From a virus (Duplodnaviria; Heunggongvirae; Uroviricota; Caudoviricetes), in the IMG/VR virus record IMGVR_UViG_2703719366_000012: a stretch of 11,222 nucleotides of DNA. The stretch is one strand, 5' to 3'. Below are positions 3,001 through 6,000 of this stretch, one piece after another. Positions within the stretch are counted from its first letter, which is position 1. Each line of letters begins with the position of its first letter. The position numbers were made by a program.

Positions 3001-6000
3001 CTCTTCCGTTGAAATATATTCCCGACCATCACAGAATTTTTCATATTCAGGATGTGTCCAGTAGCCATATCCGTCACGAACTACCGGCATTTCTTTAATT
3101 TCACTCACTGTTAACCTCCTGCAACGCTACACGATACGCCTTCTTTATCCACGCCTTACTGCCATATAATTTCGTCTTCATAATAAACACACCTGCACGA
3201 CTCGCCGATATCCCCGGACAGGTTAACAGCACAGCATCCACCACACGGTTATGCTTCCGAAACTCCATTACAGTACTGCTGATAACCACCTGCCCCACCG
3301 GGCCGTAATCCTGATACAGGATTTTCACGCAGACACCCTCCTGTCGAAATAAACGTAGTTATTCACTATGCGCAGCGGCATGCCTAATTTTCTGGCAATT
3401 TCCCTTCTTTGCATGCCTCTCTGATGCAGTTGCCGCGCCAGCTCAATATCACGCTGAGAATATTTTGCCGACGGGTGAAAATCACCACGTAACATCATGC
3501 TGATGCCCAGCTCCCGTGCCTTCGTTCTCACTGCCGCTTCAGTTCGTCCGATAAGTGCGCCAACGCTTTTTACCTTCATCGTTCCCGCACACTGCCGGAG
3601 TATCATGATTTCCGCCCGGCACCACGTCTTCCACCCACTCACCGCTGCTGTTCTCTGGTGGCGGTAATATCCCGGAGAATATCCCGGCACTTGTTCAGCT
3701 CCCGCAGCGCGGCGCAGACTCGCTCCCACTTCTGAACCTGACCTTTTGCCCGGCGCAGCTCGCGGTTAGCCACATGCAGCGATGGTAAAATCAGACCATC
3801 CGGATGCTTTCTGGTGAACGACGGCTGTGACTGCACTGTGACCGCCACACTTTCCGTTTTTATTTCTTCCTGTGTTTCCGCTTCCCCGACTGGTAACGCA
3901 ACACCTGCTGGCTGAGGAAAGGCTTTACCATCCGTTTCCGTTATGGATGCGGCTTTCGGCTCTGCCGGTAAATCAGCGCCCGGTATGCAGTACCGAAATT
4001 TACCGCCCTGATTCACGCGAATCAGACGCCCTTTGCTGATTGCCATGGCCAGTGATGAATTCGCCCGGCGGGAGGTAATCCCGAACATCAGTGCCAGCTC
4101 ATCCGCCGTTTGTGGGCCATGATGTTCAATCGCCTCAGTCAGCATTTGCGCTGTCACTTTCGGTACCGGTGACACTGGTTCACTTTCACCAGTCTGAGTC
4201 AGCCACCACATCGACCCCTTGTTATCCGCTTCACCACGGCGCTTCAGTTTCCACAGTTCGTTGACAGCATCTTCGCGGCTGATTCCAAGGCGCGATGCCA
4301 CTACCTGTGAAGAGGCTTTTTTCAGTGCTTTCAGTGCGTCAAATACGGTTTCCATTAATATTTCCTCCGACAAAATCGTTTCTCAGATTCAAATAAAACC
4401 AGCTGCCTTCCGGCGTTCGTATTCCTGTTTCAGCCGTTCAATTGGCGTTGGCCCTTGCGGGTGTTTCGCCCCTTCCAGTTGTCGTCGCACTGGCGGAACA
4501 CTCATCCCGTTACCAACATGCTTTGCCCATTTCGTCAGTTGCCGTTCCGCAAGTCGTTTTAACTCACCTTGCGTCATCTGGCGCTCAATCCCTCTGGTAC
4601 GCATTTCGAGGCAGATGTGGTACAGCACAGGCTGTGGCCACGGGTATTTATCACTCCCGTCGTATCGCCAGGATTCATTGCGCCAGCGCCGGTACTCTTC
4701 CATCACGGCATCCACCGTAAGACCAAATGGATTTGCCCCACTCTCCGAAATCAGCGCAACAAACTCAGCCAGGTCCGGGGGCCACGTTTCACCCGCCCGG
4801 CAGCGGTCCATGCACTGACGGCACACCAGACGGATTTGCTGTTCAGTCATCGCACCAATCTGGGCAATCCAGAGCTTCGAAGGTGCGGCCCCGTTCTTCT
4901 GAGTCCAGCGGTTCGAATACACCTCCCCCATGAGCTCCCACAGCTTCCAGGCCGTTTCCGTTGCTGATAAATCCGTTGTCACGTTCCCACTGTTCGCGTG
5001 CAGCCCGGATTTCCTGAACTGCCCGTGATGCCGTGCCACCTGATGCTGCATGGCTTCCCCCCTTGCTGACTGGTTTTACCTGTGCCCTGACGTGCTGCAC
5101 GTGGCGGGCAAATTTCTGCTCCCACTGAACCTGCGTGAAAACCTTCCCCTCCGCCATCCAGTAATCCCGGAATGCGGCAAGCTCAGCAGGTGTAAATTCC
5201 GGCTCAGGCAGAGCCATACCCCACACTGCTGCCCGTTGTCGAAAATCCGGCGACGGCTGCCAGACAGTAGTCATCGAAAATTTCCCGATCGGTTCGCTCA
5301 GGCCGTCCAGGTATTCAGGTTCGGCTGTCTGCAACGGCGCACCATTCGACTCACTGGTCGGAATACTCTCGCGCGCGTTATGTGTGGGGTTTAATTCTGT
5401 ATCTGTATCTTTATCTGTATCTTTATCTGTCGTGACTTGTCGTGACAGATGCGTGACACGTCGTGACTCATCGTGACAATCAGCATTATGTTTCCGCAGC
5501 TTTTCCCGCTCCCGCTGCGCTCTCTTGCGCTCTGCCGGGGATTTTGCCGTTTGCGAAACGTTACCATTGTCCTCTTTCAGCACCTGACGTTTTTCCCATC
5601 CGGAAATAAGGTCACCATCCAGAACCCGCCCCTGCATTGCATGCAAAATTGAATCAATTACGTCTTCCGTCACATCAAGCGCACTTGCTAAATCTTCCGT
5701 CGTGACATCAATGTGACCACGTAGTGACACGCCGTGACATGTCGTGACATTTCGTGACGCGCTCACCAGAAGATGGATATACACTGCCATCACTGTTGCG
5801 ATTGGCTGTCCTGATACCCTGGCAATCGTTCGCCACTTGGGGTCATTTGGCATGTCATGCCACAATCTGAGCCAGGCATTAGCCATACTCACCTCTTCTG
5901 ATACCGAACTTTACCCTCGAACATCCGGAAGAAATCCGGCATGAATATTGTTGGTCAATGCACGACAACAGCATTACCAGGCTGACCCCCACTGTTAGTC

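Follow-up and report, generated by a model that had tools for sequence, protein, structure and literature searches.

The established replication origin of lambda and the Stx phages is a set of iterons with an A+T tract behind it, located midway in gene O (PMC7466680), and in phage SPP1 the origin oriL likewise lies inside a gene, namely gene 38, where direct repeats are combined with an A+T-rich unwinding element (PMC6316719). The locus considered here resides in an 11,222-nucleotide stretch of DNA from a virus of the Caudoviricetes (IMG/VR record IMGVR_UViG_2703719366_000012), hereafter the window, which is 100% identical to the chromosome of Escherichia coli EDL933 at about 2.85 Mb (NZ_CP120944.1) and belongs to a Rac-like lambdoid prophage, now degraded, of E. 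coli O157:H7. On its minus strand it carries an O-like (YdaU-like) replication initiator gene whose coding sequence contains two arrays of a short direct repeat, designated A and B, and an A+T-rich tract that adjoins array A. Because the layout of array A and the tract matches that of the lambda origin in O and resembles that of oriL in gene 38, we regard the interval 5396-5759 as probably a two-part vegetative replication origin inside its own initiator gene. In-gene iteron origins are textbook matter for lambda; the initiator family met here is common yet uncharacterised, comprising 1346 clusters at 50% identity (E<=1e-3), and a query with positions 5300-5900 finds matches in 41% of the complete E. 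coli genomes (2226/5426); prophages throughout the Proteobacteria carry the domain of this family.

Two arrays of one core inside the initiator gene

The repeat unit of both arrays is a direct core of 6-7 bp that recurs with a period of 10-11 bp and has no conserved flanks. Read as GTGAC on the plus strand, the cores of array A start at 5432, 5442, 5453, 5463 and 5473 (spacing 10/11/10/10), and those of array B at 5702, 5713, 5724, 5734, 5744 and 5754 (11/11/10/10/10); the arrays begin 270 bp apart, the nearest cores are separated by 229 bp from start to start, and core and orientation are the same in both. An earlier note on this DNA had described the first cluster as five TCGTGAC copies at 5431-5477, and five copies of CGTGAC are indeed present, of which four read TCGTGAC and one reads GCGTGAC. 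The other elements of that description stand as given, namely six more GTGAC copies about 270 bp away (CGTGAC in 4/6), a spacing of one helical turn throughout both arrays, AT-rich tandem repeats beside the first cluster (5396-5430, period 12 or 6, adjoining array A) and the location of both clusters within the O-like coding sequence, inside the minus-strand gene 4843-5886. The tract amounts to 2.9 copies of the 12-bp unit with 95% matches (Tandem Repeats Finder), begins 4 nt after the last core of array A, encodes DKDTDKDTDT and marks the GC minimum of the initiator gene (32.5%); it is presumed to be the DNA-unwinding element.

The arrays stand out clearly from the rest of the window. CGTGAC occurs 15 times against an expectation of 4.8, a count that none of 200 shuffles reached, and nine of the 15 copies fall inside the two arrays. 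When runs of any 5-mer at spacings of 9-12 bp were collected, the longest had six members and the second longest five, whereas 1000 first-order Markov simulations gave a maximum of four, attained in three of them; all runs of three or more in the 11.2-kb window are confined to 5401-5758. A run of CGCTC at 10-11-bp spacing (5507-5528) was considered separately and set aside as a coding by-product: it encodes the basic helix AERKRAQRERE, whose Arg codons vary freely in homologues.

Are these repeats elements of the DNA or of the protein? The core is read in three frames, array B being translated as SR-NVT-TCH-GVS-RGH-DVT and array A as CH-ESR-VTH-SR-VT within the linker portion CHDESRRVTHLSRQVT, and because the 10-11-bp period is read in all three frames, an amino-acid repeat is ruled out. 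Codon usage leads to the same conclusion. Homologues were sampled as 65 loci encoding the N-terminal domain, one genome per species, at 43-92% identity, and a codon alignment was built from the 20 genes whose core is of the GTCAC type, with GC contents of 42-69%. In this alignment the codon entropy is 0.18 bit for iteron codons and 1.40 bit for other conserved degenerate codons (Mann-Whitney p=4.7e-6), and 16 genes with a core of the GAACG type show the same difference (0.39 bit for iteron codons versus 1.49 bit elsewhere, p=4e-4). In array B, V47 (GTC), T48 (ACG), G57 (GGT), H58 (CAC), V61 (GTC) and T62 (ACG) are each encoded identically in 20/20 genes, as are S148 (TCA) and V151 (GTC) in array A, where H138 is CAC in 18/18; conserved residues elsewhere in the same 20 genes make use of six (R7), five (L8) and four (P13) codons. 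The tract behaves similarly: Asp is almost always GAT and Lys almost always AAA, and this holds for genes with a GC content of 60-69% as well. The earlier note had named as refuting its proposal a repeat conserved at the protein level only, and the entropy values exclude this scenario; these codon patterns argue that the repeats are elements selected at the DNA level, not amino-acid repeats. A single inverted core downstream of array B (Table 1) bears on the same point, since the V72 codon is GTG in 18/18 GTCAC-type homologues that retain Val, and by this measure DNA-level constraint extends to it. Visual inspection of a few GAACG-type genes showed no counterpart of the inverted core.

Copy numbers are labile even among close relatives: in near-identical E. 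coli loci (L005-L084 of IMG/VR; 96-100% protein identity) array B comprises 5-6 copies, array A 3-6 copies and the tract 0-9 GATAMA hexamers, with all changes in copy number being in frame.

Covariation of the core with the N-terminal domain

The earlier note had regarded the second cluster (array B) as unusual. It proves instead to be a conserved, co-evolving part of the whole initiator family, as the scan for repeat periodicity in related genes that the note had proposed places both arrays at the same gene positions, nt ~120-185 and nt ~340-450, in ~50/63 homologues. In these homologues the second run in the gene lies directly 5' of a D[KT]D[KT]-coding tract, and in most homologues, also where the gene has a GC content of 60-69%, (GATAMA)n is found 4 nt 3' of the last array A core. 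The hosts include Enterobacterales, Pseudomonas, Bordetella, Acidovorax, Janthinobacterium, sphingomonads and Acidobacteria.

What changes across this range is the core itself, and it does so in both arrays of a gene at once. The core shared by the two arrays is GTCACG in 27 genes, GTAACG in six, CGAACGC in ~19 and TGACG in one, with one mixed case, and the variants, when aligned on their common ACG, are one or two bases apart. The core copies of a gene usually total 6-8, and because these dispersed copies change alike, selection for a common reader is indicated. The encoded peptides follow suit: the loop specified by array B and the linker specified by array A shift in parallel, ASRNVT..RGH..VT in the loop and CH..SRNVT in the linker giving way to NATERGRT and NATERKRT, respectively, because the core changes in both arrays. 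The type of core follows the tree of the N-terminal domain, constructed with the iteron-encoded loop masked. It shows no dependence on the C-terminal domain: eight C-terminal types unrelated to each other are joined to N-terminal domains of the GTCAC type, and a single C-terminal type is found with GTCAC cores in some genes and GAACG cores in others. Three or four natural cores (GTCACG, GTAACG, CGAACGC, TGACG), each with its variant of the N-terminal domain, would thus amount to a testable specificity code, and the locus offers a clean case of overlapping constraints in which selection on a DNA site determines the sequence of a protein loop.

The initiator is composed of a winged-helix-like N-terminal domain (aa 1 to ~105), a low-complexity linker (aa ~106-175) and a DnaT-like C-terminal domain. 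Its open reading frame spans 4843-5892 on the minus strand, with the start annotated by PGAP at 5886 and an alternative GTG start at 5892, and PGAP names the product 'DnaT-like ssDNA-binding domain-containing protein' (WP_001262402.1). The only Pfam match is DnaT (PF17948), in the C-terminal half (E=2.9e-17), accompanied by a partial match to NF002770 (E=5.7e-27); PHROG profile matches are to replication-initiation families. In an AlphaFold2 model of the N-terminal domain, computed with 57 sequences, three helices are followed by a hairpin or loop spanning aa 46-62, by a helix-turn-helix spanning aa 63-84 and by a wing; from aa 106 the linker is poorly ordered. The part encoded by array B (aa 43-62) runs from the end of helix 3 through the hairpin or loop to the point where the helix-turn-helix begins, and array A together with the tract encodes the linker. 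The window and E. albertii differ from nearly all other homologues examined in a 7-aa (21-bp, two-unit) insertion in the loop encoded by array B.

Some members of the family carry a further domain. In two homologues (L130, L145) an extra domain follows the N-terminal domain, between two CTACGTA arrays at gene nt 326-372 and 651-693, and HNH endonuclease domains were recognised in 4/57 aligned family members scanned and, by precomputed Pfam annotation, in five proteins; the proteins listed with the inserted-domain observation are P0047, P0072, P0073, P0090 and P0106. These HNH domains may be homing-endonuclease insertions in the origin region.

The mosaic make-up of the window gene indicates the unit to which core and domain belong. 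The segment 5395-5892, that is, the N-terminal domain, both arrays and the tract, has ~85% DNA identity to phages Evi and Tritos, and the segment 4843-5426 has 87.5% DNA identity to ydaU of phage Rac-SA53, the mosaic joint being the GATAMA tract itself (5395-5426). Because the joint falls on the tract, the travelling unit consists of the N-terminal domain, both arrays and the tract, and this combination looks, at the level of sequence, as an origin-specificity module should.

A probable two-part origin and its alternatives

The succession of events at such an origin can be pictured as follows. The winged-helix-like N-terminal domain of the initiator would bind the 6-7-bp core GTCACG, and the 10-11-bp repeat would align the bound initiators on one face of the helix, one monomer per helical turn, in both arrays. 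Assembly on array A would then melt the adjoining (GATAMA)5 tract, upon which the DnaT-like C-terminal domain and the P-like protein would deliver host DnaB. Array B would bind the same protein, join the same nucleoprotein complex and raise the local concentration of the initiator, probably looping or wrapping the ~230 bp of intervening DNA. What we infer here comprises origin activity, the identity of the core-binding protein, the melting of the tract and, for array B, both looping and a positive contribution.

What, then, is the role of a second array within the coding sequence of the domain itself? Because its core and orientation are those of array A, because the copies of a gene usually add up to 6-8, and because the homologues that lack it carry the largest A arrays, array B is most likely an integral auxiliary binding array in the same complex, acting through cooperative loading or looping. 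The homologues without array B are three (L120, L135 and L140, from Edaphobacter and Novosphingobium), and their linker arrays comprise 7, 5 and 7 copies, respectively, the largest A arrays seen. It is possible, though somewhat doubtful, that array B does more than supply extra binding sites, and that this family uses a bipartite origin with one array written into the coding sequence of its presumed recognition domain and acting as a distinct control element. In that case ~20 residues of the domain would be dictated by its own binding site, specificity and both arrays would have to change in concert, and array B would loop to array A in order to license or limit firing, or would couple firing to transcription through the gene.

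A number of observations weigh against the proposed two-part origin. The arrays and the gene are physically linked, and the correlation of core with domain is therefore partly plain co-inheritance. Across the family the copy numbers of arrays A and B show no overall negative correlation (rho=0.01). The gap between the arrays clusters modulo 10 (R=0.56), a value that counts related sequences repeatedly, and helical phasing between the arrays is not claimed, since gain and loss of repeat units gives the same pattern. Confidence in the N-terminal model is moderate (mean pLDDT 74.5), and a fold search of the model against the PDB returned only generic winged-helix proteins at E>0.2, with no family assignable; sequence profiles likewise found no relatives of solved structure. 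No studied model phage is among the 24 phage records that contain the N-terminal domain, and no paper on this initiator family or its origin was found in a search that did not extend to the review of phage replication modules by Weigel and Seitz (2006). Finally, the prophage is decaying, with recE truncated and the integrase a pseudogene according to the PGAP annotation, and its origin may be inactive in this strain.

We consider it unlikely that array A and the tract make up the whole origin and that array B acts negatively or in autoregulation, either as a roadblock to transcription that serves the initiator and loader genes or activates the origin, or by handcuffing to array A or a sister copy, which would limit re-initiation as in plasmids P1, F and RK2. 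Array B does lie apart from the tract, at a distance of ~230 bp to array A and within an early part of the transcribed gene, its shared core and orientation imply that it would bind the same protein, and the three homologues lacking it indicate that it is not strictly essential for the family. The same three cases, however, carry more copies in array A, which suggests that the copies are additive rather than opposing; a lytic burst origin hardly needs a limit on its copy number, and the cI/cro intergenic (promoter) region contains none of the core copies that one would expect under operator-type autoregulation.

Still less probable is the notion that the arrays serve a host protein or another phage protein, such as YdaT, DUF1627 or the repressor, in transcription control, packaging or recombination. 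The position of the mosaic joint at the A+T tract would suit a recombination hot spot, but in hosts as far apart as Enterobacterales and Acidobacteria the core tracks the N-terminal domain and the C-terminal domain is variable, a comparison made between domains of the same gene; a host factor would not be expected to shift its specificity in step with a phage domain, and in-gene origins already known have the same position and layout. Hardly any credence can be given to the view that a repetitive or constrained amino-acid sequence (SRNVT...RGH..VT and CH..SR.VT) gives rise to the repeats as a by-product without any DNA function, for although the encoded peptide is conserved within subgroups and the period of the GATAMA tract is a multiple of three that encodes DKDT repeats, a 10-11-bp period in three frames is incompatible with an amino-acid repeat, the codons for Val, Thr, Gly, Ser and His in the core are fixed in 18-20/20 genes where equally conserved residues use 4-6 codons, the joint change of loop and linker (NVT/SRxVT versus NATERGRT/NATERKRT) makes sense only at the DNA level, D=GAT and K=AAA are kept in genes of high GC, and the spread of host GC content excludes a general codon bias of the hosts.

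Setting of the locus and comparison with known origins

Table 1. Features of the locus; positions are those of the window
Feature	Position	Strand	Basis
Replication initiator gene (O-like / YdaU-like), 347 aa	4843..5886	-	ORF list, translation, PGAP, Pfam
Array A, five direct GTCACG copies (gene strand), gene nt 410-455	5431..5477	-	motif scan; linker-encoding
Array B, six direct GTCAC(G) copies (gene strand), gene nt 129-185	5701..5759	-	motif scan; encodes aa 43-62
Single inverted core (GTGAC on gene strand), ~30 bp downstream of array B	5669..5673	-	motif scan
A+T-rich purine-skewed tract (GATAAA/GATACA)5, gene nt 457-491	5396..5430	-	Tandem Repeats Finder
Lambda-P-like helicase loader gene, directly 3' of the initiator gene	4389..4850	-	Pfam, BLASTP, PGAP
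Cro-like (P22_Cro) and YdaT genes, 5' of the initiator gene, same rightward-type operon	5955..6654	-	Pfam, PGAP
cI-like repressor	6698-7336	+	ORF, Pfam

The order of genes on the minus strand is P22-Cro-like, YdaT, O-like initiator, lambda-P-like and DUF1627 (Table 1), and transcription from the cro promoter would traverse both arrays. The gene downstream of the initiator matches Phage_lambda_P (PF06992) at E=1.3e-15 and lambda P itself at E=3e-6 by BLASTP, is named 'replication protein P' by PGAP and, on this similarity, is a true lambda P homologue. The roles of YdaS and YdaT as cro/cII analogues have been shown in CP-933P, another prophage of EDL933, which has a paaR2 immunity region, in a study that did not analyse the o gene (PMC8630535). 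The cI-like frame is open over 212 aa (HTH_3 and Peptidase_S24), of which RefSeq annotates the last 112 aa only, as 'LexA family protein'. No DnaA boxes lie near the arrays, the only two matches in the window being near 262 and 1268, which is neutral with respect to the origin model. A scan of 4800-6800 for promoters and terminators gave counts at chance level, and one promoter-like match (5453-5480) is composed of the iterons themselves. The same scan, with its chance-level count, contained a terminator-like hairpin followed by TTTAATT at 5367-5389 on the plus strand, antisense to the initiator gene and beside the A+T tract.

A query with 5300-5900 matches three places in the EDL933 chromosome (NZ_CP120944.1). 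Several co-resident prophages with origins of the same or similar specificity would follow from this, and cross-activation or competition among them is possible. More generally, these arrays matter for how low-complexity 'linkers' are annotated and prophage origins predicted, for whether co-resident prophages interfere with one another's replication or are incompatible, and for the design of replicons from prophage modules.

In gene order the locus resembles the Rac replication module (ydaU-ydaV, oriJ), as both run from a cro-like gene through ydaT and a ydaU-like gene to a P-like gene or ydaV; the mapped position of oriJ was not found in accessible literature. With ydaU of Rac-SA53 the window gene shares the DnaT-like C-terminal half and a closely related tract of GATACA repeats. 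The N-terminal domains, by contrast, are unrelated, that of Rac-type YdaU being DUF1376 (PF07120, E=5.9e-26 for Rac-SA53), to which the window protein gives no match, and Rac-SA53 ydaU has no GTCACG arrays but an inverted repeat, TGTTCAAACACC / GGTGTTTGAACA, adjoining its tract (L003 2040-2150). It may, from these sequences, represent a different type of origin with a common unwinding tract.

The replisome organizers of Gram-positive phages, of which SPP1 G38P is one, have an N-terminal DNA-binding domain, a function that is putative in the window protein, and their own gene contains direct repeats and an A+T-rich unwinding element; the window gene has repeats and a tract of this kind, which would act as its origin. 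The description of TIGR01714 mentions a low-complexity region reflecting origin repeats. The homologue from phage Evi matches TIGR01714 over the full model length at E=0.015 (15.5 bits, with a cut-off of 49.8) and Phage_rep_org_N (PF09681) with 12.8 bits (cut-off 23.3), weak PF09681 matches occur in 6/57 family members (best E=3e-4), and PHROG families of replisome organizers are matched at 6e-6; the window protein itself matches neither PF09681 nor TIGR01714. With scores so far below the curated cut-offs, the window initiator would be at most a distant relative of the replisome organizers. Further differences are that the second binding region of SPP1, oriR, is a separate origin ~13 kb away, whereas array B lies 230 bp from array A in the same gene, and that the hosts of the window family are Proteobacteria and Acidobacteria rather than Gram-positive bacteria, with a C-terminal domain that in the window protein is DnaT-like.

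The iteron plasmids (P1 with incC/incA, F ori2 with incB/incC, RK2 oriV, R6K) provide the parallel for array B. They too possess arrays of the same repeat hundreds of bp apart, several arrays being bound by one initiator and one of them lying beside the A+T-rich site of opening. In P1, F, RK2 and R6K the arrays are known to loop or handcuff with one another, and the second iteron arrays of P1, F and RK2 act in copy control. However, their iterons measure 17-22 bp, are intergenic and are bound by WH1-WH2 Rep proteins, and the window initiator has no match to a Rep family (WH1-WH2, Rep_3-like) in Pfam or NCBIfam; the window element is, moreover, a lytic-type phage module with a lambda-P-like loader. 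The resemblance to iteron plasmids is limited to the second array.

Architecturally the locus closely resembles the origin of lambda and the Stx phages in gene O. Both the lambda origin and the probable one in the window lie mid-gene, at the junction between an N-terminal part that binds the origin, as is presumed for the window protein, and a C-terminal part that partners the loader; in lambda the iterons of O occupy nt 349-433 with an A-rich tract directly behind them, just as in the window array A is followed by its own; and in both the initiator gene comes after cro/cII-like genes and before a P-like loader. In Stx phages two extra iterons add 13 aa to O, and extra repeat copies in the window family likewise add residues to the protein. 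The designation of the locus as a lambda-type ori, as first proposed, thus holds for its placement, which is that of lambda O, but not for its components. The window initiator has no detectable similarity to lambda O (BLASTP E=1.5; no Phage_rep_O match even at E<=10), and in place of four inverted-repeat iterons of ~18-19 bp, spaced 20-24 bp from start to start, it has direct 6-7-bp cores at 10-11 bp and not 18-bp palindromes. Nor does lambda possess anything equivalent to array B, a second array ~230 bp upstream within the sequence coding for the N-terminal domain. 'Lambda-type' is therefore an analogy only: the locus would work like a lambda-type origin, and is not a member of that family.

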